Shown here in pieces: positions 21,169 through 53,203 of a DNA stretch of 64,000 bases. The DNA lies in the NCBI GenBank assembly GCA_000004695.1, contig CM000150.2:2880001-2944000 (forward strand), in the 5' to 3' direction. The stretch's first letter is position 1. Each line of letters opens with the position of its first letter. Both the position numbers and the translations under genes were made by a program. The notes below the pieces were generated by a model, which was given only the letters and a program-made list of their open reading frames with translations, was not told where the DNA came from and made no database searches. Origin of the DNA: Dictyostelium discoideum (Eukaryota).

Positions 21169-21236
21169 TTTATTTTATTTATTTATTTATTTATTTATAT
21201 ATTTTTTAATTTTTTTTTTTTTTTTTATTTATATAT

Positions 21237-21271
<35 letters not shown>

Positions 21272-22022
21272 TTTTTGATTATTGATATTATTTTAATGAA
21301 TGGTTATTATTATTTTTTTTTTTTTTTACATTTTATAGTTTTTATTGTTATCTTAAATAACTCACAATCATTCTCAACTATTCTTGAACTATCATTAAAT
21401 CATTTTGAGAAAAAAAAAAAAAAATTAAAAAACACCAGAACAAAACAAGTTTTTTTAAAAAAAATTTATGGGAAAATAAAAACATTTTTTTTTTTTTTTT
21501 TTTTTTTTACCAAAAATTTTATTTTTAGAATTTATTTTACCATTTATCTTTTATTTTGAAGGGGAAAAATAAATTTATTGGATTGAATTGGTATATTTTT
21601 TTTTAAAAATTTAAAATTTGGATAAATAAAATTTTAAAAAAAAAAATAGACATTCAAGATTAAATTCTTTTATTTGTTTTTTTTTGATTTCAAATTTATA
21701 AAAAATAAAAATAAAATGTAATAGTTATTTAATTTAAATTTTATCTTTTCTTTAAAAAAAAAAAAATCAGAAATCTATTCTGATGTGATAAAATTTTGGA
21801 GAGGTTCAGATTAATTTTATAAAATGAAATTTAAATAAAAAAAAAAAAAAATAAAATAAAATAAATAAAATAAAATAAATAAATATAAGAAATAAAATAA
21901 AAAAAATTCAACTCAGTTTTTTTTTGAAAAAATAAAAAAACAAATTAATAGATAAAAAATATGTATATTCTTTGTTTTATTTAAATTTTATTGTACATTT
22001 TTAAAAAAAATAAAAATTTTAT

Positions 22023-29435: not shown

Positions 29436-30548
29436 TTAATTATTATTATTATTTTTAAAATTTGTATACCATTTTGGTATTATTAAATTAAAATTATCAA
29501 AATGATTTAAAATGATTTTACATCTTTCTTTCATTAATTCAATTTGATTATCATCAATTGATTCAGCCCAAACTATTCCACCAAGACAAGATGTAGCAAC
29601 AAAAGTTGTAAAAGAATACCAAAAATCAGAGGGTGGTTCTTTGTTATTAAAATAACCATCAATTTGACCAACACAAAATGGTATACTTAATCCAACATTA
29701 AAAAATTGAATTTTGTGAAATTCCTGATAACCATAACCAAATTGACTTCTATTAAAATCAATTATACCTAATTTACTAGTATCATTATCATTATTATCAT
29801 TATTATCATTATTATCATTATTATTTTTTATTAATATCATATTACCAAAATGAAAATCATTATGTTTTAAAACTAATTTTGAATTTTGTAAATTTTCATT
29901 TATTTTCACAACTTTTTCTAAATTTAATTTACAATAATCAATTATACATTGGTCATTTTCAAATCTAAATTTACCATTAATATCTTTTTCAAATCTTGAG
30001 ATTACTTCTAACCTTTTTTCTAATCTATCAGTATTAATTATTGGTGGTGGTGGTGGTGGTGGTGGTGGTGTGGTAGTATCATTATTATTATTAATTAATG
30101 ATGATAATGGTATCAAATGAAATCTTTTTAAAATTTTACCAGCATTTAAACCTAATCTATATTGATTTTCAATTGATTCATTAAAGATTGAATCATTAAA
30201 ATCTTCACCTTCAATCCATGTTAGTAACATCCAAACATTCTTTTCTTCATTACACAATCCAATATCAATTGGTTTTGACATTTCAACTTCTAATTTCTCA
30301 TCATCATCATTTAATAATACACTATTAAATATTTTAATTGTTGAAAATTCAATATCCTTCTCTTTAAATAATTTTGATTCTGATATTCTAAGTAATTGAA
30401 ATTTCATTTGTTGTTGTTGTTGTAGTTCTTCTTTTAATTCAACTTTGAATTTTAAATCATTTGAAAATCCTTTATTAATTGGTGTTATGGTTTTCCAATT
30501 ATTAAAATGAGGAATATCTTTTAATATCTCTTCTTTATATGAATTCAT
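29436..30548 (-). CDS. Aminoglycoside-phosphotransferase/choline-kinase-like family protein (PF01636-type).
   Basis: Single 370-aa ORF. It carries the catalytic-loop motif HNDFHFGNMI (H.D....N) and IDFNRSQFGYGYQEF (DF.-type metal-binding motif). Poly-P and (DNN)n inserts are present. Confidence 0.65.
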   Translation of the reverse strand: MNSYKEEILKDIPHFNNWKTITPINKGFSNDLKFKVELKEELQQQQQMKFQLLRISESKLFKEKDIEFSTIKIFNSVLLNDDDEKLEVEMSKPIDIGLCNEEKNVWMLLTWIEGEDFNDSIFNESIENQYRLGLNAGKILKRFHLIPLSSLINNNNDTTTPPPPPPPPPIINTDRLEKRLEVISRFEKDINGKFRFENDQCIIDYCKLNLEKVVKINENLQNSKLVLKHNDFHFGNMILIKNNNDNNDNNDNNDNDTSKLGIIDFNRSQFGYGYQEFHKIQFFNVGLSIPFCVGQIDGYFNNKEPPSDFWYSFTTFVATSCLGGIVWAESIDDNQIELMKERCKIILNHFDNFNLIIPKWYTNFKNNNNN

Positions 30549-32749: not shown

Positions 32750-33110
32750 TTTAAAAACTGACACCGGCACTGACACCTCTTGAAAAACCAAAATTATTTT
32801 TTTTTTTTAAAAAAACAAAATACACAACAAACATCTCACGATTTTTTTATAGTCTGGGACAAAATTTCATCAAATACATATGTAAAAGTCTAATAACGCA
32901 TTTAAATGAGACCTTAGCAAATTGTATCACCCAATAAAAAAACATGACACCTTTGCAAAGTGTGTCATCCAGTTGGTTTTCAATGACACCTAAGCATGGA
33001 GGTTTATTGTAATTGTCTCCTAAAAATGGCGCCTTAAGAAAGTGTGTCATCCATTTTTTTTTCAATGACTCCTTAGCATAGTGGTTTATTGTAATTGTCT
33101 CCAAAACGTT
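32750..33110. repeat. GC-richer non-coding block with an ~85 bp tandem duplication and reiterated, partly palindromic (A)TGACACC / GTGTGTCATCC motifs.
   Basis: Similar units occur at 32975-33060 and 33060-33125 (caatgacacctaagcatggaggtttattgtaattgtctcc... versus caatgactccttagcatagtggtttattgtaattgtctcc...). atgacacctttgcaaagtgtgtcat at ~32943 is a near-perfect palindrome. tgacacc occurs at about 32759, 32770, 32944 and 32984. Confidence 0.6.
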
Positions 33111-33153
33111 AGAAGTTAGCAGTTGGTCCAGGGTTCAACTCCCTGAGGGGTCT
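33066..33153 (+). pseudogene. tRNA-like fragment with an intact T-arm and acceptor pairing but no clear anticodon arm. Likely a tRNA pseudogene or tRNA-derived repeat.
   Basis: CAGGG-TTCAACT-CCCTG at ~33129-33145 is a perfect T-stem/loop. The 5' strand GACTCCT (~33066) pairs with the 3' strand AGGGGTC (~33146), with one G-U pair. A D-loop-like AGTGGTT is present. I cannot fold a 17-nt anticodon arm. The fragment sits inside an ~85 bp tandem repeat. Confidence 0.3.
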
Positions 33154-33780: not shown

Positions 33781-36700
33781 ATGATAAATAAAATTTCTCG
33801 TTTTAAAATATTATTATTGTTTATTTTTATTATTTCATTGACATGTGCTCAAGATGGTAAGTTTTTAATTATTTTCTTTTTTATAAAACATTTGCAAATA
33901 TTGACTTTTTTTTTGAAAAAAAAAAAAAAAAAAAAAAAATTTTAGAGGAATTAATATCAACACCTGAAGGGTATTACGATTTAAAACGGTTTAAAAGATT
34001 TCAACACTATAAAAATATCCAACCCAATGAAGAAGCAGGATATACAGATTTATATTATCCAGATGTTTGTAAAAATGCTATAAGGAATAGAGATGGAGCT
34101 CCAACATTTAATCAGAGAAGCTTTCCAGGTTATACAGGAGTATTCGACACTTTACTAATAACAAAGGGTATTTATCATTGTAAAATTCATAAAAATACAT
34201 CATTTTGAAAAACTTAACATTAACATTTCACCATTATCATTTCATTCAATCAAAGGTACCAATATGACATTGGATTCAACCGGTTTCCTTACTGGTCTGG
34301 GTATCTGGTCACTCTTGACTTTATGTGTTGAAGGAAATTTAACGGTACTTTATAATCCAGATGAATTTTCTTTCGTACCTGTTCATAGGTTAGTTATACT
34401 ACCAGGTGGAACTATAACATCCCATGCAAATTCATTTCTATTCTGGGATACTTACCAAGTTGATGAGAATTTTCAAGAAGAATTAAACAAAAGAGTAAAG
34501 ATTGATCCTTTTAATTTTTTCCCTGGTCTACTAGTCTTGGGAGGAAATTTAAATTTATTTGGTAATAGTCAATTGACTTATACTGCTAAACGATTGAACG
34601 ATACTACATTGGAACTATCAACTCCATTTTTAAATATGAAATTTCTATGGAATAAATATATAATTACAATCTTTACAGAATCAATACCACAAGGTGATGA
34701 TTGTCTTTTTAATATGGATTCAGATAAAAGAACTTTTTACTTAATTAAAACCAACTATGGTACTTGCAATCCATTACGGGAAACAGATAAACTCATGAAA
34801 GTAGTAATCTCATACAACCGATATGAGGATAATTACTCAAGCTATATATCTCTTTTTTCAGATTATTATGGTTTCGAACCAAATGAAGCTTCTATTTTTA
34901 TAACAGGTGATTCAAATGTCTATATTGAAAATTATCTTATTAAAAATTTAGGCAAAACAAAAAATAATGCATACAGTGATACAAAATTAATATTTTCACC
35001 AAATAATACAAGTGAAGTTATAGGGTTTATAAATGGTACCAATCAAAGATTTAGAAGTTCTTTATATATAGAGTTTTCAAATAATGTTATCATTAAAAAT
35101 TGTGTAATTATAGAATCTTCTTCAGAAACAAGATCACCGTTAGTATTTTTTGGTTCAAACGTATATTTATCAGATAATTTAATTTCAAGTAAATCTGGTT
35201 CAAGTTTAATAGCACAATATGGAACTGAAAATATTCAATCTATAAATAATTTTTATTTTCAAAAAGGTGTTTCACATCAAACTGCCTCTCAAATATTAAA
35301 TCCAATTAATATGGATTTTGGAAATGAAGGAAATGGCATTTATTCAGTATCACCAAATCTTTTATCAAGTGATGATTTTTTTATTGGTCAAAATTATTCA
35401 ATTACTTTTAACTTTATTGCCAATAGGTCAAAAATTACTGGTTTTGATCAAGATTGTTATGCACCATGTTTTAGTGATTCAATCAATTTTTCAAATAAAA
35501 TTCAGTATCCTGTAGATTTTAAAATTTTTAATCCAAAGTTTTTACCAACAAATAATACCAATAGCGATTGGTATATTTTAAATATAAATGATAATGGAAA
35601 TCAACCAGGTACCTATTATACAGTAAAAAATTTAACAACTTTAGATCCCGTACAGTTTTCATTGGATAATAGCGCTTTATCCTTTTTAGGTCTAGAAGCA
35701 AGTGAAAATTTTAAAATGAATGGTAATGCCAAAAGATTGGATATTGTTAATTCAATTATCAGTTCAAAAGCTTTAACCAACCAACAACAAATAATTTCAA
35801 AAGTTTCATCATCAGCTATTAGCTTTAAAAATTCTTATATATACAGTAAATTAGGTCAACAAATTACACCTATAGATAATCAGATTTATGGATCATTAAT
35901 TACACCATTTTATTATAATGATTCAGATATTTTAAATCAAGTTAAAATTTTATCAATTTTTCCCAATGTCCCTTTTCAAATTGTATCAGGTTCTATATTA
36001 AATGTTAGCATAAACCTTCAAATTATTTCAACGGCTGATATTTCATGCACTTTCTCTTCAGATAATTCTACTTTTAGTACAACAATTTTGGTTAACCCAT
36101 CAGACGGAAGTTGTGTTTTACCACTTGTTTTTGAAAAAGAAGGTTATTTTAATTTAAAAGTCACATTAAAGATTTCAACATCAAAGGATTATTATTATAT
36201 AGTTGATTTTCCAAAGATTACAGTATATAATGAATATTTATTTTATTCAGGATGGGTAATGATTGATTCAAGCACAGATGAATTTCTATTTGAAGGTAAA
36301 ATATTTAAATCAGGTTGCCAACAACAGGTATTAGGTAATTGTACAATATCAACAAATTCAAAGTTTATAAATGGCTTGCCAAATGTAACAGAAACAGATG
36401 AACTTAATAGATTATTTTCAAGTGGTATAACATCAATCAATCCATATGAACCTGTGACAATTACAATACCAATTGATAAAGAATCAAAAAAGAATCAAAT
36501 CCAATTATTTTTTACTCACCAACCAATTGATATAGAATATAGTCTATTATCAATATATGTAGAAAATCAACCAATATTCCTTTTAGAACAATTACAAAGT
36601 GGTTTAGGTTCAACATTTAAAAATTTAACATTTAATTATGAAAATTCAAAATCACTAGAAATAATCAACATTTCTTTCACAACAAGAGGTGATATCTATT

Positions 36701-37675
36701 TAACTTCAATGGCGGTTTATTCATCAGCCATCCCAATAATCGTTACACCAACACCAACATCAACAACATCAACACCAACACCAACATCAACAACAACATC
36801 AACACCAATTCCGACAACAACACCTACAACAACACCAAAAACATCAAAAACAACCTCCAAAAACAAATTAAAAATTGCTTTACCAATTTGCCTTTTTGCT
36901 CTTTTGGTTGCTGTTGGAGTTTTAATATGTTTTATTTTCAGAAAAAAAAAACAAAAGAAACAAAAATTAGATAATAATATGGAGGATGGAAGTGAGATGT
37001 CTTCAATTAAAATTAAAAAAGAAAATTATAATTCTTTTAACAAGTTTAAAGAGTCAACAGTATTTAAAAACGATGATTTTAAAAATTATTCCAATCCAAC
37101 CGAAACAACAATTTATAGCACTTCCGATTCACTTTTAAACTTTGTTGGCTCTGACTTTTTAAATTACTCTGACCCAAACATCCCCTTATCCTTTAGTAAA
37201 AATATTTTAGAATTTGGATTAAAAGGTTCAAAATGCGATATCAATACCTTCCTTTCCGATTCTTTACGAATAACAAATAACTCTAATATTATATTATGTA
37301 TTTGTACAGTTCTTCCAAGAAATGACTCTGGTGAAGTAAGAATTTTTTGTTTTTTTATTATTATTATAATGAATTTAATTAACTAATCAATAATGAATTT
37401 TTTTTTCAGGTAAATGTTAGTCCAGATTCTTTTGAATTAGATCCAAATCAATCAAGAGAGATAGAATTTTCTTTAAAGTTAAATTGCACAACAAGAGTAG
37501 GTTGAATTTTTATAATTGAATTATTATAATTTAGTTAATATATATACTAACTGCACATCTATTTATATCCTAGTTTTTTGAAAGATTTGCTATTGAGGCT
37601 AGACATACTCACAGTTTCAAGTCAATTCACACTCACCTTTTCATTCATGTTGAATCTAAGATTTCCTCTAAAGTA

Positions 37676-37713
<38 letters not shown>

Positions 37714-38690
37714 GATTTTAACTTAACTTTTCTTTAGTTGGATATAAAAGAGATTGAAGTTAAAGAATTGATTTCACAAAATAATTTATCAACTGTTAAT
37801 ATAGCAAATTATAGAGGTTTACAAGTTGTTTTGAGAAAGATTAAAACTCATAGCGCAAATTACACCAAAACTTACTCTCAAGCAATCAAAAAATTCTACA
37901 CAGAAATGGATATACTCTCAAAGTTAAAAAACAAAAATATTGTTTCATTTATTGGTTGCACTCACGACTCTTCTCACCTTTGGATTGTTACTGAATATGC
38001 ACCATTGGGATCTCTTAGTTCTCTTATCCATCAAAAGAAAGAAAAACTTTCATTAATTCAAAAAGTCAAGTAAGTAAAAAAAAAAAAAACAATAATATTA
38101 TAATTTAGTTCTTTTTTCTAATATTATTAATAGGTTAATGTTAGATACAGCAAAGGGGTGTGAATTTCTACACTCAAATGATATTACGAATTGTAATATA
38201 AAATCAAATAATTTATTACTCTTTTCAACAATGGAAAAAGATGATGTTTGTGTAAAAATTTCAGATTTTGGTATAAAAAGTAATTATTATTATTTTTTAA
38301 ACAATTGTTATTTTTTATACAATGATTATTTCTAACTTTTTACAAAAAAAAAAAAATAAATAAATAAAAATAGAATTTGAAGTACAAAACCAAAATGAAA
38401 AAGAAATTTTTAAAGATGAAAAAGATCAAAAGCTAATTGATGTTTATGAATTTGGAATTACATTCTATGAAACAATGCTTGAAGAAACTCCAGAAAACCT
38501 ATCTAATTTAATATTGGAAGGTGAGAGACCAACTCTTGATTTGGAAAAATTAGATGCAGACATTAGAAACATAATTGAAAGATGCTGGAACCAAAACAAA
38601 AGGTCAACATTTTCAGAGATTAGTATTTCACTAAAAGAAAAATATACAAAATTGTTGGAGAAAAATAATGAATTAATACAAGAGAATTAA
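33781..38690 (+). CDS. Receptor-like protein A: signal peptide, parallel beta-helix ectodomain, transmembrane helix, degenerate cytoplasmic pseudokinase. Eight exons.
   Basis: Exons are 33781-33856 ([25 protein letters not shown]), 33946-34167, 34256-37335, 37410-37496, 37574-37672, 37738-38069, 38134-38279 and 38374-38690. The ectodomain has PbH1-like repeats (…[18 protein letters not shown]…[21 protein letters not shown]…[12 protein letters not shown]…). A T/P-rich stalk leads to the TM helix [23 protein letters not shown]. The kinase-like region keeps subdomain II-V remnants (VVLRKIK…[20 protein letters not shown]…[13 protein letters not shown]), the DFG (ISDFG) and [11 protein letters not shown]. 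It lacks the Gly loop and the HRD catalytic loop ([12 protein letters not shown] instead). Confidence 0.7.
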
Positions 38691-38769
38691 TTTAAAAACT
38701 AACAATAAAAACAAGATAATTTATTATTATCTATGAAATTAGAAATATTTTTTTTTTTTAAATTATTGT

Positions 38770-38945
38770 TAATATTATTTGGATTACTACAAATGATATT
38801 AAAATAGAGATAGTAGATTTAGAGTTAATAGTAGGTGAAGCTGCAATTAAGTGTTAAACACTATTATTATTTGTTGTAGTTGTTGTCGATTTACTTGATT
38901 TTACAACTGGTTGGAACTCCAGATGTTGTACCGTTTGTAATGGAA
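38770..38945 (-). pseudogene. Truncated 3' fragment of a GPI-anchored surface-protein gene, paralogous to 42116-42300.
   Basis: 38760-38940 aligns almost base-for-base with 42110-42300, including the reverse-strand region that encodes the hydrophobic tail ...ISILISFVVIQIILTII* and the S/T-rich stalk. It then diverges, and no upstream ORF follows. Confidence 0.55.
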
Positions 38946-39136
38946 CAAGGAAAATAAAAAATAAGATATTAACAAATGTTTTTATTGAAGATAATTTTGG
39001 TAAAAACCAATTAAAATTTTTTTTTTCTTTTTTTCAATCTCTTAGAAATATGCCTTATTTTTTTTTTTTTTTTTGGATGGCATTCGTTTTTTTTTTTTTG
39101 GAAGACATTTTTTTTTTTTTTCTTATATTCAACAAA

Positions 39137-41830
39137 ATGAAATTAGGACAAAGGATATTTATTTTGATATGCTTAGTTATCAACTCTTTCTCTAATTGTA
39201 AGTCAACAATTAATTAAATATTATTCATTTTTTTATTAAAAAAAAAAAAAAGACTAAAAAAAAAAAAAAAAAAGGCAGTCTTGTGGTTTCACCAAATGGT
39301 TATTATAACATTTATCGAGAAAATAATTTTGGGAATATTTTAAATTTAAAGCCAACAGCAGAAAACAAATTACAAGATTCATATTATCCAGGTGTTTGTA
39401 GCAATGCAGGAAAAAATAAAGATGGTGTGACTAGTTTTTTAATATCCTCTTTCTCTATTTTTTTTTATAAATTACATCAACGTTATTGTTACAAAAGGTA
39501 TGTAAAATTTTATTTTAAATAGAATCATATTATGAAATATAAAATATTAACCAAATGCAATTAATTAACCAATTAGGTTCACATATGGTATTGGGAGATT
39601 TGGAATATTCTAAAATGAGTAATGTTAGAACTTTATTGAATATAGTTTGTGTTGAAGGCTCATTATTATTTTCAACACAAAGTGTTTTATATATGAGTGT
39701 CTTGGTAATGTTACCTGGTGGTAGTTTTGAATGTTTAGATTGCACAATTCGTTTTCGTGAACTACATCCAGCAAGCTCTCAGATCGATCCATTTGGTTTT
39801 TTCCCTGGTGTACTTGCTTTAGGTGGCTCGTTATCTCTTATTGGGAAGCAAAAAACTACATATTCTGCGACCAATATTGGTGGAAATATATTAGAGGTTC
39901 CAGATCTTTCAACATTAGATAGTTTCAATGGTTACAGTTTATCAATATTTAGTGAATCATTTCCTTTGGGAAAATCTTCAACCTTTTCCCATTATTTAAA
40001 TCGAATAAGTGTATTAGATTTGGTTATTCCGAAAACAGATAAAAATATAAGAGTCTTCTTTAATCCAAATTTTTCATTTTTCAACTCAGACAAAATCAGA
40101 TACCGCTTCAATTCATATCACAGGAAATACCAATGTATATAGAAAATTTTTACATCAATTCTTTTGGAAAGACTTCAAATGATCAATATAGCGATACAGA
40201 ATTGGTATTCTCACCTGATGATCCAAATTTAATTACAGAGTTTATAAATGGTAACAAAGATTTAGAAATTCATTATATATAGAGCATTCAAATAATGTTA
40301 CTATAAAAAATAGCGTTATACTTGAAACAAAAGAAACAAGATCACCATTAGTAATTTTTGGTTCAAATGTAAATATATCAGGTAATATAATATCAAGTAA
40401 TTCTGGTTCAAGTATTACAGGATTTGATAAAGATTGCTATTCACCATGCTATAATGATTCGATAAGAGTTTCAAGTAAAGTTCAACATTTATTAGTTCAT
40501 CAAATTACTCTGAGTTTTCTTTTTAGAATCAGCGAAACAGGTAGTAAACAAAGTTCAATTTATAAAATAAAAAATTCAAATTTAAGTTATCCAATTTCAG
40601 TATTATTAGAAAACAACGCATTTATATTAGATAATGTTTATGGTTTTGGTGATTTTAGTAATAATGGTATGATTAAAAGATTTGATATAATAAACTCAAC
40701 ATTAGATCCTTCTGCATCATCATCAATAAGTTTAAACAATTTTTCAAAAGCAATTTGTATTCAAAACTCATTTATGGATTTTAAATCATTTCAAAAACAA
40801 AACAATCAATTATTACACCTTACCTATACTATTTCGAAAATACAATGAATCTTATAAAAGTATCAAAAATGTATCCAAATGTAAACCATCAAATTTTAGC
40901 AGGTACAGTACTAAATATGGGTATTGAAATTATAATTATAGCACCATTATTTGGGAAAATGGATTGCATATTTGAAGATGAAAGTAGTGTTCAAACAATA
41001 CCATTTGATAAATCAAGTAATTCATGTGTTTTACCATACACATTTAAAAATGAAGGTTCATTTAATGTACGAGTTACATTATCACTAAATAACTCTGGAG
41101 ATAGTGTATTTCAAGTATATTTTCCAATGGTTACAGTATTTAATATATTCATTTTATTCAGGATGGGCAATGATTGATTCAAATATAGAAAAAGAAATAA
41201 TAATAGATGGTAATATATTTAAAAAAGGTTGTCAACAACAGGTATTAGGTAATTGTACAATATCAACAAATTCAAAGTTAATAACAGGTTTACCAAATGT
41301 GACAGAATCAGATGAACTTAATAGATTATTTTCAAGTGGTATAACATCTATCAACCCATATGAACATGTAACAATAACAATACCAATTGATAAAGAATCA
41401 AAAAAGAATCAAATCCAATTATTTTTCACACTAACCAATTGATATAGAATCTAGTCTATTATCAATATATGTAGAAAATCAACCAATATTCCTTTTAGAA
41501 CCATTACAAAGTAATTTAGATTCAACATTTAAAAACTTAACATTTCATTATGAAAATTTAAAATCTCAAGAAATAATCAACATATCTTTCACAACAAGAG
41601 GTGATATCTATTTAACTTCAATGGCGGTTTATTCATCAGCCATACCAATAATCGTTACACCAACACCAAAAACATCAAAAACTACCTCCAAAAACAAATT
41701 AAAAATCGCTTTACCGATTTGCCTTTTTGCTCTTTTGGTTGCTGTTGGAGTTTTAATATGTTTTATTTTAAGAAAAAAAAAAAACAAAAATTAACTAATA
41801 TTATGGAAGATGGAAGTGAGATGTCTTCAA
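39137..41830 (+). pseudogene. Receptor-like kinase pseudogene B: multiple frameshifts, in-frame stops, internal deletions and loss of the kinase exons.
   Basis: The signal exon MKLGQRIFILICLVINSFSN and the next exon (VSPNGYYNIYRENNFGNILNLKP…) match gene D. The track splits the body into broken ORFs at 39555-40142, 40845-41177 and 41104-41442, with the stop 'tatatatag' at ~40270. About 230 bp are deleted relative to D between '…SGSS' and 'ITGFDKDCYSPCYND'. The C-terminal stalk and TM (…[15 protein letters not shown]…[23 protein letters not shown]) instead match gene A. Only a short kinase 3' remnant (~41990-42050, …NELTQEN*) survives. Confidence 0.7.
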
Positions 41831-42115
41831 TTAAAATTAGTGTTTCACCTTTATCCAACTTGGGATAAAAAATGTTTTTTTTTTTTTTTTTTGATTACTA
41901 CCTTTTCAGTCCTTATTTTTTTTTGCGATCCAAAAAAAAAATTAAAAAATAAAATTCGGATTACAAATTAAAAAGGAATTTGTTTATCTTAAAGAAAAAT
42001 ATATAAAACTGTTTGGGAAAAGTAATGAATTAACACAAGAGAATTATTTTAAAACTAACAATAAAAACAAGATAATTTATTATTATCTATGAAATTAGAA
42101 ATATTTTTTTTTTTT

Positions 42116-45100
42116 TTAAATTATTGTTAATATTATTTGGATTACTACAAATGATATTAAAATAGAGATAGTGGATTTAGAGTTAATAATAGGTGAAGCT
42201 GCGCTTAAGTGTTCACCACTATTATTATTTGTTGTAGTTGTTGTCGAAGAGTCTGTTGATTTACTTGATGTTTCAACTGGTGCGCCAGTTGTTGTACCGC
42301 TTGTAATTGGAATTGAATAAGGAATTGTATTATTTGAAAAAACTTCAATACCGCACATTGGTATTGAGTACTTGAGATTATCAGATGCCCACTCAATCAT
42401 GAGTGTAACATCAGTTGAACCACTATTCCAATAGAATGGCCCAAATTTTTGATATTTTTGATAAGGTGAAGAAGGTCTTGAGTATGGATCTTGATATTTG
42501 CCATTAATCTTAATTGTGAAAATGGGTAGTGAGTTGACGATGTTGGCTCCAGTGTAATCTGCATTATAAGAGTAGATGAAAAACTTGTATTCTGCATTTG
42601 CTGGTAAAGTTAAATTTACTGAACTTTTAATTCCTAATGTAACATCATTTGATAAATAAGATGTTAACATTGATACTTCATCAGTTGCGCTTCTGATAGT
42701 TCCAGTTGTAGATTCAGTTACCGTTGATGGAATTGGTGATACTTTACTGTATTTACCAGTTACCTTACATATTCCACTAATCCAACCACATTTAGTCCAT
42801 TGGTTGCCTAAAATTGATAGTGCTTTGGAAGATGAACTAAAATCTGGAGTTAAATCTATACCAAGGTAAAACAATTGAACACCAGAATCAACTATATAGG
42901 TTTGAGCATAATATGGTCCAACAATAGATGGATCATTTGGAGCATATAATAGATTGGATGAAACAATAACTGTATAAGGTCCATTAGCTTTTGGGAAATT
43001 GGCAACCTTGGAAATAGGAGAAGCACTTGAAGGGTAATCTATTGATTGAATTACTTCGTTTACAATATATTCTATATTTTGATTTGAACCTAAAAGGTAA
43101 TCGACGTTTGGTTTAAATGATAATAAAAGTTGATTTGAAGTTATTGAATTTACCATTGGGTTAAAATTATATAATGGATATAAACCAAGGACCCCTTCAA
43201 ATATATCTAATTTTGTACCATTTACATTAGAAAGGTATAGCTGTGTGGTATATTTCTTTAAGAATAAAGATGAACTAGAATAATGAGAGAAGAGAGAGTT
43301 TTTAATTGATAAATAACCACACGAAAATGTTTCAGAAAAGAAAACATAATTTCCTTTGGCAATGGAATTAACAATTGATATCGCATTGTATTTGCCATTT
43401 AGAGTGTTTGGAGCATTAGTAAATACTTTCTCATTTGAAGATAGAGAGTTTGCAATATATGGAGAATCATAAAAGATTTCAATGTTTGCTTGGTTTCCGG
43501 TTGAACCAAGAGTTAATGATGGTTGCTGTCGAATATACCAACCAAATTTTATATTAATTTTTAGTGGGGGTTGAGTTCCAATTGGATATCTAACACGTAC
43601 TTCAGTTTCACCTGCAAAGAAATTACTCAAAAAAACAACATTGTTCCAAACATTATTAGTTTTGTAATCAGCAGTGTTATCTTGAGTTAATCCAGAGTGT
43701 ATACCTATCAGTTTATCTGATGCTAAACCCAATGTTGAATATCTACTTTGAATTGGGATTACATGAATTGCACCTCCTTTGAATTTACCTTCAAATGCAT
43801 TTCCTTCATATGTAGAGTAGGGTGATGATGTTATTATACCAACATTTATATAATCTATGTCTGGATAGGTTCTATATGATGAAACTATGCTGGTATCCGA
43901 GTATAAAGAAATGAACCCATTATAGCTAATATCAAATTGCTCTGTTCCATATAATAATGAAATACCACTGATACCTTTTCTCAATGCAAATGCATTACCA
44001 GATATTGTACCAAATGAACGTTTAGCACCAATAAAAGCTCTTGGGATTTCACTTTCTCTTAAAGTATCAATGTAGTCATAATCCATGAACATATTATTCT
44101 TAATATTTACTGCTTCTTTATTATGTAATAAAGTTATTGGATATCTATCAGGTATATTTTTTCCATATTTAAGAACATTATAGTTTGAATTTAATATATT
44201 ATCATCGAGAACATTGCTTGTTGTATGTCCAATATCATAAAAAACACTGTTTTGAATATTAACAATCGATCCAAGAGTAAAAGTCATTGAACTATTATAA
44301 AACCCTTTGATAAATACATTTTTAGACCAAGGTCTCATTACAATATAACCACTTCCACCAAATATTTCTCCTATTATTTCACTTGGGGATGCTGCGATAG
44401 CACTAGTATAATATTGATCCATTGAATAATTAATATTGTAATTTGGATCATAACTTCCACTCATTCTAAATAAAGGTAATCCTGGACTTGAATAAGAAAA
44501 AGGAGTACGGAGGAATGAACCTCCATAAGAACCAGATTTTGATGTGTTCCTTCCTGCCCATATTGACTCAGTGTTAAAACCAATAATGTTAACTGTACCG
44601 CCCAAGGAGATAAAAGGAGATGTTTGAAGAGGATCCCAAGATGGGAAATTCCAATATTCAAAAGCGGGTAAAAATATTGTGTGATTAAAACTTGAAGATG
44701 GTTTTGATTCAAATACACCAGTTGGGAATATAATTGTTTTGGAGACTGTGTAATATGTATTAGCATTTGGATCAAGAACCAATTTTCCTTTAATAATAAT
44801 TGTATAAAGCCAACTGACTCTTCCATAAAACGTAACTGTTACTCCTTCTGGAATAACCAAAACATTTTTTAACAATAATAAACTTCCTGAAGGGTTTTCG
44901 TTAATGTTTATTGGTGGTGTAAATAAATCAGTGGTAAGAAAGTTTGTGTCACTATATATTGTGCAACTTGATTTGAAAGTGTATTTTACTGTATTTGGAT
45001 TTGACTCCAAGTCTGGATAAAAATCACCTTTGTAGTTTGGGTTTTCTGGATAAAAATTAATCTTGAAATGTGGCTGCCCATTAATATTTACACGTGGAGA

Positions 45101-45271
45101 GTTCCAATCGAATGAATAAAGTTCTTGAGAGTAAGTTTCTTATTTTTTTAAATTTATTAAGATTAGTAAATCTATAGGGAAAAAAAAATAAAAAATAAAA
45201 ACAGAAAATTTTAAATAAAAGTATATACTCTGATATAATATAATGACCAGCGTAACTAATAACTTTATCAT
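42116..45271 (-). CDS. Large secreted GPI-anchored cell-surface protein, about 1000 aa, Ser/Thr/Asn-rich, 2 exons.
   Basis: Exon 1 (~45229-45271) reads ATGATAAAGTTATTAGTTACGCTGGTCATTATATTATATCAGA, giving the signal peptide MIKLLVTLVIILYQ, with a GTATAT donor. Exon 2 (42116 to ~45123) is the 964-aa track ORF extended upstream (…KLYSFDWNSPRVNINGQPHFKINFYPENPNYKGDFYPDLESNPNTVKY…). The C-terminus is an S/T-rich stalk (…TTGAPVETSSKSTDSSTTTTT…) followed by a hydrophobic tail ISILISFVVIQIILTII*. That arrangement is typical of a GPI-attachment signal. Confidence 0.65.
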
Positions 45272-45959
45272 TGTAAAGAATAAAATTAATTTCTTTAAAG
45301 CGAAATCTGAAAATCAGATATTGTAAATTGTCAAAGGAAATTAAATTAGTTATTTCTTTTCATTTAAATAATATAATTAAGGGGTATAGACTATATGTTT
45401 GAAAGGCATCTTTAAAATTAAAGGAAAAAATGAAGAATTAGTATATCATTTTAAATAACTGTTCAATATTTAAATGAAAAAAATATATTTGAATTTTGGT
45501 TTTTTAATTTTTAGTTTTTAAATTTTTTTTTATTTTAAAAACAACTTTTTTTAAAATAAAAAATTGCAATTATTAACCACCTATAGCAGAAATGAATATT
45601 TCCAGTTTTTAAACGTTTTTTTTTTTATTTTTTTTTTTTTTATTATATTTTTCTACATGATTTTGTGTATTTTTATGTTTTTTTTTTTTTATTTAAATTT
45701 TGAAAATTTAATTTTCACTTTTTTTTTTTTTTTTTTTTTTTATCTTGAAATTTTTTTATTTTGTTTTAAGATCAAAAAAAAAAAAAAAAAAAAAAAAATG
45801 TTAATTCAATGATTATAAACATCATTTCTGAAATTTAATTTATTTCTTTCCTATGAAATAATAATTAAACACCACACCCCAACCATTAATTTTTTTATTT
45901 TTATTTTTATTTTTTTTTTCAAAATCTTCGCATTTTTGATTTTTTTTTTCTGAAATCTT

Positions 45960-45994
<35 letters not shown>

Positions 45995-46041
45995 CACATA
46001 CGACATTTTTTTTTTTTTTTTCTTATATATTGCTCCACAAG

Positions 46042-49000
46042 ATGAAATTAGAACAAAGGATATTTTTTTTAATATGCCTAGTTATCAACTCTTTCTCTAA
46101 TTGTAAGTCTACAATAAATTTATTTAATATTTTTCACATTTTTACTAACCTTTTAAAATAAAAAATAAAAAAATAAAAAATAAAATAATAAAATAATAAA
46201 AAAAAGGTAGTCTTTTGGTTGCTCCAGATGGTTATTATAACATTTACCGAGAAAATAAAATTGAAAATATTTTAAATTTAAAACCAAATGGTAACAAATC
46301 ACAAGATTCATATTATCCAGATGTGTGTAGTAAAGCGGTAAAAAATAAAGAAGGTGTAAAAAGTTTTATCTTATCTTCATTCCCTCTTTCAACTAAAGAG
46401 TATGCTAACGTTATTGTAACAAAGGGTATGTAGATTTTATTTTTATTTTTTATAGTAAATTATAGTATATTTATAAATATTAACAATAAGCAATTAATTC
46501 CTAGGTTCACATATGACATTGGGTGATGGAGAATATCATCAAATATTTAATATCAATAGATTTTTGAATATAGTTTGTGTTGAGGGTTCACTTGTATTTA
46601 GTACAAAAGATGTTGTATATATGAGTGCGTTGGTAATATTACCTGGTGGTAATTTTGAATGTATAGATTGCACCATCAAATTTCGAGATCTATATCCAAC
46701 CAACTCATTAATTGACCCATTTGGTTTTTTACCTGGAATTATTACTTTGGGAGGTTCATTATCTCTTTTAGGAAAGCAAAAAACTGTGTATAGTGCAGTT
46801 TTAATAGATGAAAATATATTAGAGGTTCAGGATATTTCATCACTAGATATTTTCAATGGTTATAGTTTATTTATTTTTAGCGAATCATTTCCTTTGGGAA
46901 AGGCATCAACTTTTACTTTTAATTCAAATCAAATAAAAGTTTTGGAAATCAAAATACCAAAAACAGATAAAAGCATTAGAGTATTTTTTTATTCAAGATT
47001 TTCTACTTTCTCAACTTCAACTACTGCTTCAATTCATATCACAGGTAACTCAAATGTGCATATCGAAAACTTTTATATAGACTCTTTTGGGAGGACAACA
47101 AACGATCAATATAGCGATACAGAATTGATTTTCTCTCAAGATGATCCAAATTTAATTACTGGGTTTATAAATGGTAGCAATCAAAGATTTAGAAGTTCTT
47201 TATATATAGAGCATTCAAATAATGTTACCATAAAAAATAGTGTTATACTTGAAAATAGAGGAGAAACAAGATCACCATTAATATTCTTTGGTTCAAATGT
47301 AAATATATCAGGTAATATAATATCAAGTAAATCTGGCTCAAGTTTAATAGCGCAATATGGAACTGAAAATATTCAATCAACAAATAATTATTATTCATTA
47401 TCTTTACCACTTTTAAAATCATTAAATTCAACTCTTGATAGTATGGATTATGGAAATGAAGGAAATGGTATTTTTTCGATATCGCCAAAAATAAATTCTA
47501 TTAATGATATATTCAATGGGCAAATAATAGCAATCAATCATATAATATTATCAGATAGATCAAGTATTACAGGATTTGATAAAGATTGCTATTCACCATG
47601 CTATAATGATTCGATAAGAGTTTCAAGTAAAGTTCAACATTCAGTGGAATTTAAAATAACAGGATCAACATTTATTAGTTCATCAAATTACTCTGAAAGT
47701 AGTTTTCTTTTTAGAATCAGCGAAACAGGTAGTAAACAAAGTTCATTTTATAAAATAATAAATTCAAATTTAAGTTATCCAATTTCAGTATTGTTAGAAA
47801 ACAATGCATTTATATTAGATAATGTTTATGGTTTTGGTAATTTTACAATTAATGGTCTTATTAAAAGATTGGATATAATAAACTCAACATTAGATCCTTC
47901 TGTAACATCATCAATAAGTTTAAGCAATTTTTCAAAAGCAATTAGTATTCAAAATTCATTTATGGATTATAGATCATTTCAAAAACAAAACAATCAAATC
48001 TATGGATCAATTATTACACCTTACCTCTACTATTTCGAAAATACAATGAATCTTATAAAAGTATCAAAAATGTATCCAAATGTAAACCATCAAATTTTAG
48101 CAGGTACAGTACTAAATATGGGTATTGAAATTATAATTATAGCACCATTATTTGGGAAAATGGATTGCATATTTGAAGATGAAAGTGGTATTCAAACAAT
48201 ACCATTTAATAAATCAAGTAATTCATGTGTTTTACCATACTTATTTAAAAATGAAGGCTCATTTAATGTACGAGTTACATTATCACTAACGAAATCTTTA
48301 GATAATATTATATTTCAAGTATATTTTCCAATGGTTACAGTATTTAATATATATTCATTTTATTCAGGATGGGCAATGATTGATTCAAATATAGAAAAAG
48401 AAATAATAATAGATGGTAATATATTTAAAAAAGGTTGTCAACAACAGGTATTAGGTAATTGTACAATATCAACAAATTCAAAGTTAATAACAGGTTTACC
48501 AAGTGTAACAGAATCAGACAAACTTAATAGACTATTTTCAAGTGGTATAACATCTATCAACCCATATGAACCTGTAACAATAACAATACCAATTGATAAA
48601 GAATCAAAAAAGAATCAAATCCAATTATTTTTCACTCACCAACCAATTGATATAGAAACCAGTCTATTATCAATATATGTAGAGAATCAACCAATATTCC
48701 TTTTAGAACCATTACAAAGTAATTTAGATTCAACATTTAAAAATTTAACATTTCATTATGAAAATTCAAAATCATTAGAAAAAATCAAAATTACATTTAT
48801 AACAAGAGGCGATATTTATTTAACATCTACAGCGATTTATTCATCAACTAACCAACCTATATATAACGAAGTTATTGGTATAAATGAACAATTAAATATA
48901 TTAGCAATTGTACTACCAATAACGATTTCATTGTTTGCAGCGGCATCAATATTGGCTGGTTATTTAGTAATTAAAAAATATAAAAAACCAAACATGTATT

Positions 49001-50199
49001 ATAATAGAAATACCAATGGAAATATCGGAATGAAGGTTTTCTCAACAAAATTTAAAAGAAGACCCAAAAAGGTAATACCACTTTCAATCCCATTAAGTAC
49101 AAATAGAATTACAAAGAAATCATTACAATCTTTAGATTCAATGGCTGAAAACCCTGTGATATTACTTTCCATTCCAGAATTGGAGAAAGCCAATGAACCA
49201 GAATTTAATCCTGAAAAAACTTTCTTACAAGAATCAGAATTATTAGATTTACCAACACCAAAGGTAGAACCAGAAGAGCCAAGAATTAATATTGTTCCCC
49301 TCCCTCGTTTTCCAACCGTATATAAAAAAGAAGATAACGATAAATTATTAAAAGAATTGAATATAACTGGTCCTATCACCTCTGAAAATATTGAATCATT
49401 CTTTGAAGTTGATGTTGGTTTGCCATCTTTAATAATAAAGAATGAATCTGAAATCATTCTACAAGAAATTGATTATATTGAAACTGGTGAAATTCAAGAA
49501 ATGGAAGGTAGCTTTTTGGAAGATAAATCAACTGATACAACCGTTATAGTAACAAAAAGTGATGGTTTACCTAAATTTTTTCAAACCAAAGTCTTTTCCA
49601 AACGATTTAATGATATATCCAAATTTGATAATGATTTCTTTGATCTAAAGGAATACATAGTTGAACATCAAGAAGAATCTTTTGAAATACCTTTTATGAC
49701 CTCGGAAGATGAAGTAGATGAAACCAAAATTAATATAATAGACTTTTTACTCAGTCCCAAATCTAATAAAGTTGCACTAAATATGTATTTAAAATCATTT
49801 CAAAATAGAAACCATAAACTTTGTTATGGAAAGTATGGTTCAAATAAAAATTCTATTCTTGTTATTGAAGGCACATCTTATTATTATGATTGTACAGATG
49901 TTAGGTTACCAATATCAACACCTCGTAGTAATCTTAATTTTGGAATAACAGATGGTAATAAATGTATAGTTGATAGAAAATATAGAGAAAGGTTACAATA
50001 TATAAATGTTTATAGTGAACCATTTAGAATTTATACTCTTTTTCCAGATAGTAATGATAATGTAACAATTACAACTTCAGAATGTTGTAAAGAAATAGAC
50101 CCATTTGGTTCATTAGATGTAGATATATTTGTAACTTTAAAAACAACAACCAAAGTAAGTATTTTAAAAAAAAAAAAAAAAAAAAAAGAATTATAAACT

Positions 50200-50230
<31 letters not shown>

Positions 50231-51347
50231 CATAAAAAAAACATAATAATAGTTTAATGAAAAAGTTACAATTCGTTATGAAACTGATGATAAAGAATTA
50301 GCATTTTCAACATTTGTTTATTTAAATTTAGAGAGTCAAGTATCATCAAAAATTGATTTTGATGAAATAGTTCTCGAAAAATATTTATCTGAAGGTTCAT
50401 TTGGAGTTGTATATAGTGCTATTTGGAGATCATCATCAGTTGCGGTCAAATTATTCAAACATCATTATTCTAAAGATGAAATTGATAAAGAAACATCAAT
50501 TTTATCAAAAATAAAACATCCAAATATAGTTTCATTCATTGGAAGTTTAAATTTTTTAAATACATATGGTATTGTAATTGATTATCATCCAAGAGGTTCT
50601 TTAAATTATTATACTCGTAATCAAAATATTAAACTATCAATGGTACAAAATATTAGGTATGTAATAATTAAAATATTATTATTTATTATTATTATATTAT
50701 TTATTAATTTTTTTTTTTTTTTTAGGATTTCATTGGATATTTCAAGAGCTTGTTCATTTCTTCATAAAAATGGTATTATTCATCGAGATTTAAAACCAGA
50801 TAATGTTTTAATTGTTTCATTTGATCCAGATTCTTCAATTTGCGCAAAGATATCAGATTTTGGTACTTGCAGAGGTATGTTTTTTTTTTTTTTTTTTTTT
50901 GATATATTCAAATTTTTTTTTTTTTTTTTGAATTCAACTAACTATTTTTGTTTTAAATTAAAAAAAGAAATTAATGGAAAGCATGAATTAAACTCAAAAG
51001 CTGGAACAACACGTTATATGAGTCCAGAAATTTTAGAAGGTCTTCCATATACATATTCTACAGATGTTTATTCTTTTGCAATCCTTTTCTTTGAATTACT
51101 TTCCGGAAGAGTACCATTTAGAGAAATTCCAAAAAGAGAAATTCCAAGATTTGTACGTTTAGGAACAAGACCTCGTTTAGATCAAGATGTATTTGCCGAT
51201 AATGATATATCATTAATTTTATTAGCTTGTTGGAATCCAAATCCTCGTGGTAGACCAACATTTGATACTTTAATAGATTTATTAGAAAAATTATTAAAAA
51301 AATATAAAGAAAGAGCAAAAAGAAATAAAAAAAATCAAAATCAATAA
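46042..51347 (+). CDS. Receptor-like kinase D: signal peptide, beta-helix ectodomain, transmembrane helix, intact cytoplasmic Ser/Thr (TKL-like) kinase. Six exons.
   Basis: Exons are 46042-46102 (MKLEQRIFFLICLVINSFSN), 46207-46425, 46505-50154, 50253-50656, 50726-50874 and 50968-51347. The TM helix is ILAIVLPITISLFAAASILAGYLVI. The kinase is intact: GSFGVVYSA (Gly loop), VAVKLF (beta-3 Lys), HRDLKPDN, DFG, GTTRYMSPE and DVYSFAILFFELL. The ectodomain is ~60-70% identical to gene A. Confidence 0.75.
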
Positions 51348-51464: not shown

Positions 51465-52514
51465 TTAATTACAAAAAGGAATTTTTAAAGTTGATCTTAA
51501 AATTAAATTACTTAATTGAACAATTACAACTTCAGGTTTTATTATTGGAATAAAATGAGTTGAATAAATTGAAAATTGAAAAGAGTTTTTTGATAATTTT
51601 GATAATTGATGTTGTCTTGAAACCCAAGATTCTGTATCATTAGAATTTGAAACAACCACCATTGGTAAATTACCTAATGGATTATTTGGAATTGATGAAG
51701 AATTAAATAATTCATCTAATCTTTGAGAACTTGATGTTAATGTAGACAATTCTTGATGTAAAGCTTTTAACATATTTTGATTTGGGTTTGTAATAATTTT
51801 TTGAGTAATTTCAATTGATGGAAATATTAATTTCGAATTATTTGTAAACCAACCTTGATCTTGAGTTAACATACCCTGACCACATATTAATTTAAACATA
51901 TCATTTGGTAAACTAATTACTGATTCTAATTGTTGAATTTGATTTTCAAGTTGACTATTGAATAAAGGATCGATATAATTTCTAAATGAACTATCAATAG
52001 TTAATATACCTTTTATTAATTGTGGATATTTCATAGAAAACATTTGAGCATTTAAACCACCATATGACCAACCAACATAAAAAAATCTTTTATTTTTTAA
52101 AAATGGTATTAAATCAATGGATTGTTTTAGCATTGAAACAAAATTTTCAACGCCAAGTGGTTCAGGTGAAAGATCTGACCATCCATAACCATATCTATCA
52201 AAGAAACATGCACTCTCGATACCCATTGCAGACATTACTTCTTTTTTTGACATTAATTCAATAACATTACCATATGCGGAAGAAAAGAAAGGAAATCCGG
52301 AATCAAAAATTGCAATTTCACCCTTTGAAAAATTTGGATCTTGATTTTTATAACATCTAAAATGCATTTTTAAACCATTAACCATTGGAAAGTAACTTAC
52401 ACCTTTATCATTTTTTCCAATTAAATTTGGTAATGGATAATTTTCATTCATTTGATTATTTGAAAAACAATATTTAATATTACAAATTAAAAATAAAAAT
52501 AAAATAATTATCAT
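51465..52514 (-). CDS. Secreted alpha/beta-hydrolase fold protein, a lipase/esterase-type.
   Basis: The likely start is the internal Met, MIIILFLFLICNIKYCFS, a signal peptide. The nucleophile elbow GWSYGG fits G.S.G. The rest of the ORF has an AB-hydrolase-like layout. Confidence 0.6.
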   Translation of the reverse strand: MIIILFLFLICNIKYCFSNNQMNENYPLPNLIGKNDKGVSYFPMVNGLKMHFRCYKNQDPNFSKGEIAIFDSGFPFFSSAYGNVIELMSKKEVMSAMGIESACFFDRYGYGWSDLSPEPLGVENFVSMLKQSIDLIPFLKNKRFFYVGWSYGGLNAQMFSMKYPQLIKGILTIDSSFRNYIDPLFNSQLENQIQQLESVISLPNDMFKLICGQGMLTQDQGWFTNNSKLIFPSIEITQKIITNPNQNMLKALHQELSTLTSSSQRLDELFNSSSIPNNPLGNLPMVVVSNSNDTESWVSRQHQLSKLSKNSFQFSIYSTHFIPIIKPEVVIVQLSNLILRSTLKIPFCN

Positions 52515-53203
52515 TTTTTTTTTTTTATTACAAAAAAAAAAAAAAAAAAAATTAATATACAAATAAAATAAAATAAATAAATAAATAAATAAAATAAATA
52601 AAATTAATATATATAAATAAAAATTAATATATAGATGATTATATATATAAAATATACAAAAATAAATAAATTTTTAATTTAAACAATTACATAAAAATAA
52701 ATTAATTAAAATTAGTAATAATAAAAAAATAAATTTTAGATATTTTTTTTTTTTTTTTAAATAATAGATAAAATTTTAAAAATAAAAAAATAAATTATTA
52801 ATAATAATAAAAAAAAAAAAAAAAAAAAAAGAAAAAAAACTATTAATAGAATCTTTTAAATTATTTTGAACAGAAAGATTAAACAATGATTTTTTTATTA
52901 TTGTTATTGTTGGAAAGATTTATTTTTTTTTTTTTTAAAATTTGAGTGCATCTATTTTTGAAAATTTATGATTTTTTTTTTATTTATAAATTTACACAAA
53001 TATATTGATATAAAATGAAATTTAATTTGAATCATAATACTACCCCTTTAATAATTTTTTTTTTTTTTTTATTATCAGGGAATGATGATGCAATAAATAA
53101 CATTTAAAAAATTGGTGAGACCAGAAATAAAAAATTGAGAAACAAAACAGTGTATCTGTTAATGGGTGAGTGTGGTTTAAATTATTACTGTTAATATTTA
53201 TTT

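Follow-up and report, generated by a model that had tools for sequence, protein, structure and literature searches.

The window considered here is a stretch of 64,000 nucleotides from chromosome 1 of Dictyostelium discoideum AX4 (GenBank assembly GCA_000004695.1, contig CM000150.2, positions 2,880,001 to 2,944,000 of the forward strand), with a G+C content of about 22%; all coordinates below are positions in this window unless another locus is named. It carries a cluster of genes for cell-surface proteins in the order gdt6, an unnamed gdt pseudogene, DG1041 and gdt4. An earlier note on this DNA had attributed it to a social amoeba, which is borne out, and had described three paralogous plus-strand units, all of which were recovered: gdt6 (gene A) at 33781-38690, the pseudogene (gene B) at 39137-41865 and gdt4 (gene D) at 46042-51347. 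DG1041 (gene C) lies between the latter two on the minus strand, at 42116-45271. gdt6, gdt4 and DG1041 are known annotated genes and the GDT kinase family is known as well, having reportedly been described between 2000 and 2006, with work on gdt1 and gdt2 said to date from 2000 (Zeng) and 2004 (Chibalina); to a specialist the base observation is ordinary. What seems new is the union of the GDT ectodomain (gdt_ex) and DG1041 in one G8/CEMIP-type beta-helix family, the existence of gdt/DG1041-like/gdt gene triplets and a hyper-divergent block at the head-to-head gene pair. None of the three was described in the literature searched, where no mention of DG1041 or of the DDB_G identifiers was found either.

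GDT proteins constitute a Dictyostelium-specific TKL family, six members of which exhibit the classic receptor-kinase layout, and their conserved ectodomain is "presumed to detect ligands" (PMC1420674). The transition from growth to differentiation is held back by Gdt1 and Gdt2, and loss of gdt4 lowers the sensitivity of cells to extracellular polyphosphate (PMC8262924). We rebuilt the gene models of the cluster by mapping orthologues with splicing. The gdt4 gene (DDB_G0270550, UniProt Q55DU7) consists of six exons at about 46042-46104, 46209-46427, 46507-50154, 50253-50657, 50727-50873 and 50967-51347; these map exactly, and the long exon is 100% identical to AX4 DDB_G0270550, "probable serine/threonine-protein kinase gdt4" (P0001). 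The encoded protein of 1620 amino acids (aa) contains a signal peptide (aa 1-21), a transmembrane (TM) helix (aa 890-913) and a Pfam kinase domain (aa 1350-1598) with complete VAVK, HRDLKPDN and DFG motifs. The gdt6 gene (DDB_G0270544, UniProt Q55DV2), modelled on the orthologue P0009, comprises eight exons (33781-33856, 33946-34179, 34256-37335, 37410-37496, 37574-37672, 37738-38069, 38134-38279 and 38374-38690) and encodes about 1456 aa. It was identified through the AX4 protein P0061, which falls in the same 90% cluster as P0008, itself 99.8% identical to the window. In the translated gdt6 model, VVLR takes the place of VAIK and NCNIKSNN that of HRDLKxxN, while DFG is present; Table S2 of the kinome study lists Gdt6 as inactive with precisely these motifs (PMC1420674). 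From its sequence gdt6 is predicted to be a receptor-like pseudokinase, annotated as "probable inactive" before now.

Both gdt6 and gdt4 display the architecture by which GDT proteins are recognized, namely a signal peptide, a gdt_ex ectodomain (about 870-950 aa in both), a single TM helix and a C-terminal eukaryotic protein kinase domain of the TKL group. gdt6 is inactive like gdt1 and gdt4 is of the active type like gdt2, and nothing distinguishes A or D from the family. The signal-peptide exon and the cysteine-containing second exon, previously claimed for all three units, are indeed present in each, the motifs of the latter reading EGYYDLKRF...LYYPDVC in A, NGYYNIYREN...YYPGVC in B and DGYYNIYREN...YYPDVC in D. 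A TM helix followed by a kinase, claimed for the three units as well, holds for A and D; B retains the TM helix but its kinase region is absent, about 1.6 kb being deleted relative to A.

DG1041 (DDB_G0269126, UniProt O15733, "uncharacterized protein DG1041") is intact and consists of two exons (45271-45229 and 45138-42116) encoding 1021 aa. The protein comprises a signal peptide, a G8/beta-helix region, beta-sandwich domains, an S/T-rich stalk and a hydrophobic C-terminal tail of the glycosylphosphatidylinositol (GPI) type. Its C-terminus reads ...SAAS-PIINSKST-ISILISFVVIQIILTII and is kept in most close relatives, as judged by inspection. Such a tail, with a small-residue site, a spacer, a hydrophobic end and no cytoplasmic residues, is typical of a GPI signal, and anchoring is consequently a prediction. 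The description of gene C as a GPI-anchored, S/T/N-rich giant thus stands as regards its intactness and its tail, but the protein is not a giant and is S/T-rich in the stalk only. The G+C content of DG1041, 30.6%, is the highest in the window. DG1041 and gdt4 are arranged head-to-head, and the 770-bp region that separates them (45272-46041) presumably acts as a bidirectional promoter. On its other side gdt4 is followed by an alpha/beta-hydrolase gene, so that it has no convergent C-type partner.

The receptor and the GPI protein had been regarded as two separate families, neither of which could be placed in a named one. Neither view survived profile comparison. Alignment with hhalign of 21 GDT ectodomains against 27 DG1041-family proteins extends end-to-end over about 800 columns at 22% identity, with a probability of 97-99% and E values of 4e-11 (local) and 4e-18 (global), against E values of 0.04-0.9 for reversed, column-shuffled and block-shuffled controls. 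A direct BLASTP comparison of C and D falls short of significance (E 0.33), and it took profiles on both sides to bring out the homology. On the strength of this alignment, DG1041 can be considered a full-length, kinase-less, GPI-type remote paralogue of the GDT ectodomain, the two forming one family. An exhaustive hidden Markov model search with the DG1041 profile retrieved 138 proteins, about 120 of them remote, with E values down to 1e-16; outside the dictyostelid relatives the matches are confined to profile positions ~105-435. Pfam G8 scored above threshold in 13 of the 13 remote matches scanned and CEMIP_beta-hel also in seven of them, and GDT sequences retrieve the same G8 proteins by BLASTP. 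The columns held in common with G8 proteins include the G8 glycines, D-P, G-(R/H/K)-T-T, R-(Y/F) and an invariant G-T-E. By contrast, of the histidine cluster RYPxHxHH of the remote G8 proteins a single histidine is left in DG1041 and none in the GDTs. The UniRef name of the D. purpureum orthologue is "G8 domain-containing", and a faint G8 match is recorded for one tandem relative. No Pfam match was obtained for the full-length relatives scanned (P0068, P0069 and P0072), and a profile search of the PDB sequences with the DG1041 family returned nothing meaningful.

AlphaFold2 models of DG1041 (pLDDT 78, pTM 0.82) and of the gdt4 ectodomain (pLDDT 68, pTM 0.67) both start with a right-handed beta-helix, of which G8 forms the first turns, and continue with beta-sandwich domains. 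This structural check, proposed in the earlier note, supports the beta-helix at the N-terminal end while restricting it to the first ~350-450 aa of an ectodomain that had been read as some 1000 aa of helix; the remainder is beta-sandwich. GDT ectodomains and DG1041 therefore belong to a divergent beta-helix superfamily of the G8/CEMIP-TMEM2 type, in which beta-sandwiches and a stalk follow the helix, and the GDT family is the named family of A and D. The ectodomains did not hit any well-characterized enzyme family with conserved catalytic residues, a match that the earlier note had singled out as fatal to its proposal. The DG1041 model suggests that the sandwiches behind the helix may be lectin/CBM-like. 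In a Foldseek search with the C-terminal half of DG1041, the top PDB matches were the tandem malectin-like ectodomains of FERONIA and ANXUR (E ~1e-6, TM-scores only 0.14/0.34), with CBM35 and CBM22 modules next in the list.

The resemblance to G8/CEMIP-TMEM2-PKHD1 proteins (PF10162, PF24606; TMEM2 structure 8C6I) consists in profile homology over G8 and the first beta-helix turns, and in a common layout whereby, in cell-surface proteins, G8 runs into a right-handed beta-helix that is followed by beta-sandwiches. The GDT and DG1041 ectodomains differ from this group in that they match below the Pfam thresholds, have no GG or lectin insertions of the TMEM2 type, possess a degenerate histidine cluster and are joined to a kinase or a GPI signal. 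There is no link to hyaluronan, which amoebae are not known to make.

Gene B retains the signal-peptide exon, the cysteine exon, the ectodomain and the TM helix, and the earlier reading of it as a pseudogene is upheld. Relative to an intact 957-aa orthologue (P0006) from strain ACTFIW, it contains at least five frame changes and a deletion of ~270 nt, in addition to the loss of its kinase region. It is a composite gene: homology to the gdt4 promoter begins upstream of it at 39054, its 5' part is gdt4-like with 72-100% nucleotide identity (self-blastn and sliding identity), and from about 41.6 kb it becomes gdt6-like with 91-98% identity. Past its end come sequences that again match the 3' end of gdt6 and then DG1041; a remnant on the plus strand at 41988-42047, downstream of B, corresponds to the last ~60 nt of a final exon of the gdt6 type and aligns with 38631-38690. 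On the other side, the 3' stub of gene C that had been noted at 38.77-38.95 kb was located at 38766-38945 on the minus strand (C'). It corresponds to the last ~58 codons of DG1041, disabled by an in-frame stop and indels, and tblastn places aa 990-1012 of P0029 within it. The stub is part of a 330-nt match (38631-38945 versus 41988-42312, 88% by blastn) that spans the end of a gdt6-type last exon, the spacer and the end of DG1041. We also considered whether B is the published Gdt3_ps; this was ruled out since the N-terminal sequences differ and the gdt3 orthologue resides at another locus.

Comparison with other genomes indicates how this arrangement could have arisen. Orthology of the cluster is anchored by its flanks: the alpha/beta-hydrolase gene (51465-52562, minus strand) is syntenic in D. 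firmibasis and in the two isolates compared throughout, ACTFIW (labelled D. discoideum) and ACTFIY (labelled D. cf. discoideum), both of which have the AX4 gene order, and an APH-family gene (29436-30548, minus strand) is syntenic in D. firmibasis, the sole compared locus that extends that far. Between the same flanking genes D. firmibasis has gdt4 head-to-head with DG1041, which in turn converges on gdt6, while B and the stub are both absent. This triplet is the ancestral unit. A tract of 450 nt in the membrane-proximal ectodomain (gdt6 36270-36720, B 41180-41630 and gdt4 48390-48840, all on the plus strand) is 84-94% identical between gdt6 and gdt4 DNA, with ~50% on either side, and B switches from D-like to A-like just downstream of it, which makes the tract a likely site of crossover or gene conversion. 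In the simplest history, one unequal crossover in the D. discoideum lineage recombined gdt4 with gdt6 on an A-C-D chromosome and produced A-C'-B-C-D; some 3.6 kb of C' were then lost, followed by the kinase part of B, and finally the AX4 frameshifts were acquired. The kinase deletion of B is common to other isolates, in which the gene can nevertheless be open: it encodes a kinase-less protein of 957-960 aa in ACTFIW (L009 2913-5947) and ACTFIR, and one of 733 aa in ACTFIY. The proposed duplication of a receptor-kinase and GPI-protein pair is thus correct in that both gene types were carried along, but the ancestral unit was a triplet and one gdt4 x gdt6 crossover accounts for the copies. Because an unequal crossover copies everything between the recombining genes, the duplication of B and the stub says nothing by itself about function and is not evidence of a functional pair. 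Even if no balancing selection is involved, the cluster illustrates neatly how unequal crossover drives the birth-and-death evolution of receptor genes.

Similar triplets occur at paralogous loci, which we read from isolates other than AX4. gdt2 stands head-to-head with the DDB_G0269850 orthologue, which converges on a gdt8-like gene followed by a kinase-less gdt. At another locus (L002, ACTFIY), an intact gdt3 is followed by a DDE transposase gene and by a C-like gene convergent with a kinase-bearing gdt5. gdt9 is head-to-head with a C-like gene, and in D. purpureum a gdt gene is head-to-head with a C-like gene with a second gdt alongside. The head-to-head spacing is 0.5-1.4 kb at four other loci (L001, L003, L004 and L005). 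All six examined group-4 loci of the close subfamily, including the AX4 order of gdt4 head-to-head with DG1041 and the latter convergent, across B, with gdt6, have a head-to-head pair with a gdt2/3/4/9-type kinase, and a convergent gdt5/6/8-type gene is present in four of the six. Pairing of the former kind is therefore more widely conserved than the convergent one. Neighbourhood conservation exceeds local duplication and fits a conserved module; since the GDT and DG1041 families are homologous, tandem descent followed by block duplication is a sufficient non-functional explanation.

Several other observations were made at these loci. In ACTFIY the DDE_1 transposase gene (L002 8335-9673) sits inside the head-to-head spacer of the gdt3 orthologue and the DG1041-like gene. 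gdt3, a pseudogene in AX4, is a gene of 1855 aa in ACTFIY, and gdt5, kinase-less and 1176 aa long in AX4, has a kinase domain and 1561 aa in ACTFIY (both L002, 1298-7247 and 13221-18386). A distant DG1041-like subfamily (L007 3293-13094 and L008 10001-16420) includes a gdt-free tandem array of three copies, two of them fused in one gene model of 1922 aa; at both loci the DG1041-like gene is convergent with an unrelated gene of ~950-965 aa without a Pfam domain. Locus-tag distance was dropped as a proxy for gene distance as the D. firmibasis tags 007120 and 007138/9 designate adjacent genes. Elsewhere in the window, a tRNA-Trp (CCA) gene lies at 33067-33153, about 630 bp upstream of gdt6, amid an 85-nt direct repeat (32940-33024 versus 33022-33106, 84%), and a SnoaL-like tandem family at 18939-22736 on the minus strand comprises three 237-aa open reading frames (18939-19652, 20455-21168 and 22023-22736).

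Strain comparison revealed a second peculiarity of the gdt4-DG1041 pair. A first blastn comparison, with ~87% identity over 12.6 kb, had suggested uniform strain divergence, but sliding windows between AX4 and ACTFIW resolved a discrete hyper-divergent haplotype block of ~3.2 kb at about 43900-47100. The block encompasses the N-terminal half of DG1041, the 770-bp spacer, gdt4 exons 1-2 and the first ~600 nt (~200 codons) of exon 3, that is, the membrane-distal G8/beta-helix modules of both proteins. Its ends lie inside the two coding regions, and both frames are open in every genome compared. Within it, identity falls to 66-80% for AX4-ACTFIW and ACTFIY-ACTFIW and is 89-95% for AX4-ACTFIY, against a background over 25 kb of 94-98% for all three pairs (96-98% for AX4-ACTFIW). 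AX4 shares its haplotype class with the "cf. discoideum" isolate and not with ACTFIW and ACTFIR, both labelled D. discoideum, so that the classes cut across taxon labels. At the protein level, aa 20-360 of DG1041 are 71-72% identical between haplotype classes and 67-74% between species, with 92-94% downstream (aa 480-960); aa 22-300 of gdt4 are 62-72% identical between classes and ~71% identical to D. firmibasis, with 92-96% downstream (aa 360-880). ACTFIZ carries a third class of gdt4 N-terminus, and all B copies bear a further type. The extreme divergence concerns two to three classes among five genomes, a set of few isolates rather than a population sample; the assemblies stem from work on tropical isolates that may include cryptic species (PMC12745789).

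For the gdt4 N-terminus, synonymous divergence (dS) between classes (0.84, AX4-ACTFIW) is close to that from D. firmibasis (0.88, AX4), with omega ~0.2, whereas the neighbouring hydrolase has a dS of 0.08 and an omega of 0.05. Omega of DG1041 is ~1.0-1.25 with a confidence interval that includes 1 and an oddly low dS, and positive selection on this gene is consequently unsupported. Between AX4 and D. firmibasis, dS of DG1041 is 0.2-0.3, well below the 0.6-0.9 of the adjacent gdt4. Selection on codon usage, should the gene be highly expressed, may account for the low values, which would inflate omega. As to the source of the block, recent gene conversion from sampled paralogues was ruled out, the divergent alleles being only 51-61% identical to them, and so was recent conversion from B, from which the DG1041 half could not have come. 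In protein, the B copies are 87-88% identical to the FIW-type gdt4 N-terminus, whose 5' DNA is 87% identical to AX4 B. The block may have originated from long-lived classes under balancing selection, as at tgrB1/tgrC1, from introgression or from ancient exchange with a lost C'-B pair. No comparable block was seen in the paralogous pairs of DDB_G0269850 and gdt9 in the same isolates.

Overall, these observations are probably best explained by the history of the gdt cluster combined with homologous ectodomains and a model in which DG1041 is a co-receptor or decoy. In this model, of which we hold the molecular details only tentatively, the beta-helix ectodomains would bind an extracellular glycan or polyanion, and the kinase-bearing GDTs would relay the ligand signal into the decision between growth and differentiation, as the published gdt1, gdt2 and gdt4 mutant phenotypes lead us to infer. 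GPI-anchored DG1041, transcribed from the shared promoter, would serve the adjoining GDT as a kinase-less co-receptor or decoy, and the membrane-distal N-terminal modules would be the fast-evolving part that determines specificity. The triplets of the same layout elsewhere and the block covering both N-terminal modules lend support to the idea of a receptor and co-receptor, or of recognition more generally. Several points weigh against the model. The functional link between DG1041 and the GDTs is putative, and a glycan or polyanion is a candidate ligand only; the fold is common to enzymes and adhesins alike, and Pfam scans at E <= 10 detected no domain in the GDT ectodomains or in DG1041, with neither PF10162 (G8) nor PF24606 matched in gdt4, gdt5, gdt9, DG1041 or three relatives. 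The conserved adjacency may have been inherited from a tandem duplication and nothing more. The neighbours of the C-like gene of Heterostelium are unrelated, a gdt-like kinase gene lying 7 kb off, and a distant DG1041-like subfamily (41-44% identity; L007 and L008) occurs in gdt-free tandem arrays.

Three other explanations, not mutually exclusive with the co-receptor or decoy model or with each other, were weighed against it. According to one, gdt4 and DG1041 are uncoupled neighbours, derived from one tandemly duplicated G8/beta-helix gene of which one copy gained a TM helix and a kinase; the triplets would persist by block duplication, and the divergent block would be a local side effect of gene conversion or recombination in a region prone to duplication. 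The homology of GDT and DG1041 makes tandem origin the simplest source of their adjacency, the duplication of B and the stub is a mechanical result of non-allelic recombination, and the gdt-free arrays just mentioned agree with this explanation, as do the repeated conversion tracts and signs of birth and death (B intact in ACTFIW and ACTFIR and dead in AX4; gdt3 and gdt5 kinases kept in ACTFIY but not in AX4). We nonetheless find it rather unlikely: three-gene order and orientation are kept in three paralogous copies with only 40-60% protein identity, the head-to-head pair survives in D. purpureum, and the block, with the shared promoter at its centre, takes in the homologous N-terminal modules of both genes and ends inside both coding regions with intact frames. 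A different role for the ectodomains would be that of surface polysaccharide depolymerases or modifiers, of the G8/CEMIP/TMEM2 or pectate-lyase-like kind, acting on bacterial capsule or amoebal matrix, DG1041 being a free GPI-anchored enzyme and the GDTs enzyme-kinase fusions. G8 and CEMIP_beta-hel are indeed found in sequence relatives, in some of them along with dockerin or CBM-type modules, and the ectodomains share an invariant Glu (GTE) and Arg (RY/RF) with the remote G8 proteins. What makes this quite improbable is that of the R-Y-P-x-H-x-H-H cluster, strongly conserved in the remote G8 proteins, only one His is left in DG1041 and none in the GDTs, that identity to any characterized enzyme is 6-15% and that the non-enzymatic adhesins PfbA, Vag8 and pertactin score equally well. 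An N-terminal beta-helix that changes rapidly is more in keeping with a binding surface than with a conserved catalytic cleft, and even for TMEM2 no active site is assignable (PMC10206443) and the activity is disputed (PMC10276149, PMC10474455).

The block itself can also be read as the mark of a pair resembling TgrB1/TgrC1, in which the N-terminal modules of gdt4 as receptor and DG1041 as surface cue would bind allele-specifically, in trans or in cis, and in which recognition of self/non-self, prey or pathogens would maintain the polymorphism through balancing or diversifying selection. One of the two proteins carries a kinase. As at tgrB1/tgrC1, the two genes are adjacent and divergently transcribed, here 770 bp apart, and both encode surface proteins; strain divergence, extreme among the few genomes compared, is localized in a contiguous block over both 5' halves, with mosaicism, duplicates and pseudogenes. 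The two to three allele classes differ from one another as much as sister species do, a similarity seen also in the dS of the gdt4 N-terminus; they are not copies of sampled paralogues, they group AX4 with the "cf. discoideum" isolate rather than with ACTFIW and ACTFIR, and the further N-terminal cassette on the B copies recalls the mosaicism of tgrBC (PMC12745789). Against this, polymorphism was observed in a handful of genomes (five to six, some maybe cryptic species, and not a population sample), the omega interval of DG1041 includes 1 and its value may be inflated by low dS, omega of the gdt4 N-terminus is 0.2 and the block is absent from the gdt9 and DDB_G0269850 pairs of the same strains. 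The proteins consist of a beta-helix and beta-sandwiches without the IPT/TIG repeats of Tgr proteins and are not Tgr family members; a single partner has a kinase, the partners are mutual paralogues and recognition is putative. Known gdt phenotypes concern the switch between growth and differentiation and not segregation, and old ectopic exchange with a lost C'-B pair, or introgression, could yield the block without selection. On balance a Tgr-like pair appears unlikely. More doubtful still is the wider proposal that Dictyostelium has, in gdt4 and DG1041, a second polymorphic recognition locus independent of Tgr. Matched N-terminal beta-helix cassettes of ancient divergence, one on a receptor kinase and one on its GPI-anchored paralogue, would be inherited together across the common promoter, shuffled through duplication and conversion, and preserved beyond species boundaries by balancing selection, and the locus would couple recognition of glycans of self, kin, prey or pathogens to the choice between growth and differentiation.

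The co-receptor or decoy model has a counterpart in plants, where LysM CERK1 with CEBiP/LYM and FERONIA with LLG1 likewise combine a carbohydrate-binding-type ectodomain on a single-pass kinase with a GPI-anchored protein. In the LysM case the GPI partner even has the same type of ectodomain as the receptor, as DG1041 does with respect to the GDTs. The folds and kinase families are unrelated, however, and the interaction of GDT and DG1041 is hypothetical. The plant receptor kinases and their GPI partners are usually not encoded by neighbouring genes.

For twenty years the GDT family has counted as the principal set of classic receptor kinases in this amoeba. A beta-helix fold of the G8/CEMIP type for its ectodomain points to a glycan or polyanion ligand, and a GPI-anchored paralogue kept beside GDT genes at several paralogous loci is a candidate partner. 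The sharply bounded, hyper-variable block over the outermost modules of both genes constitutes a testable lead on ligand recognition by GDT proteins. If this block reflects balancing selection, Dictyostelium would possess a second polymorphic surface-recognition locus, one that is wired to a kinase.

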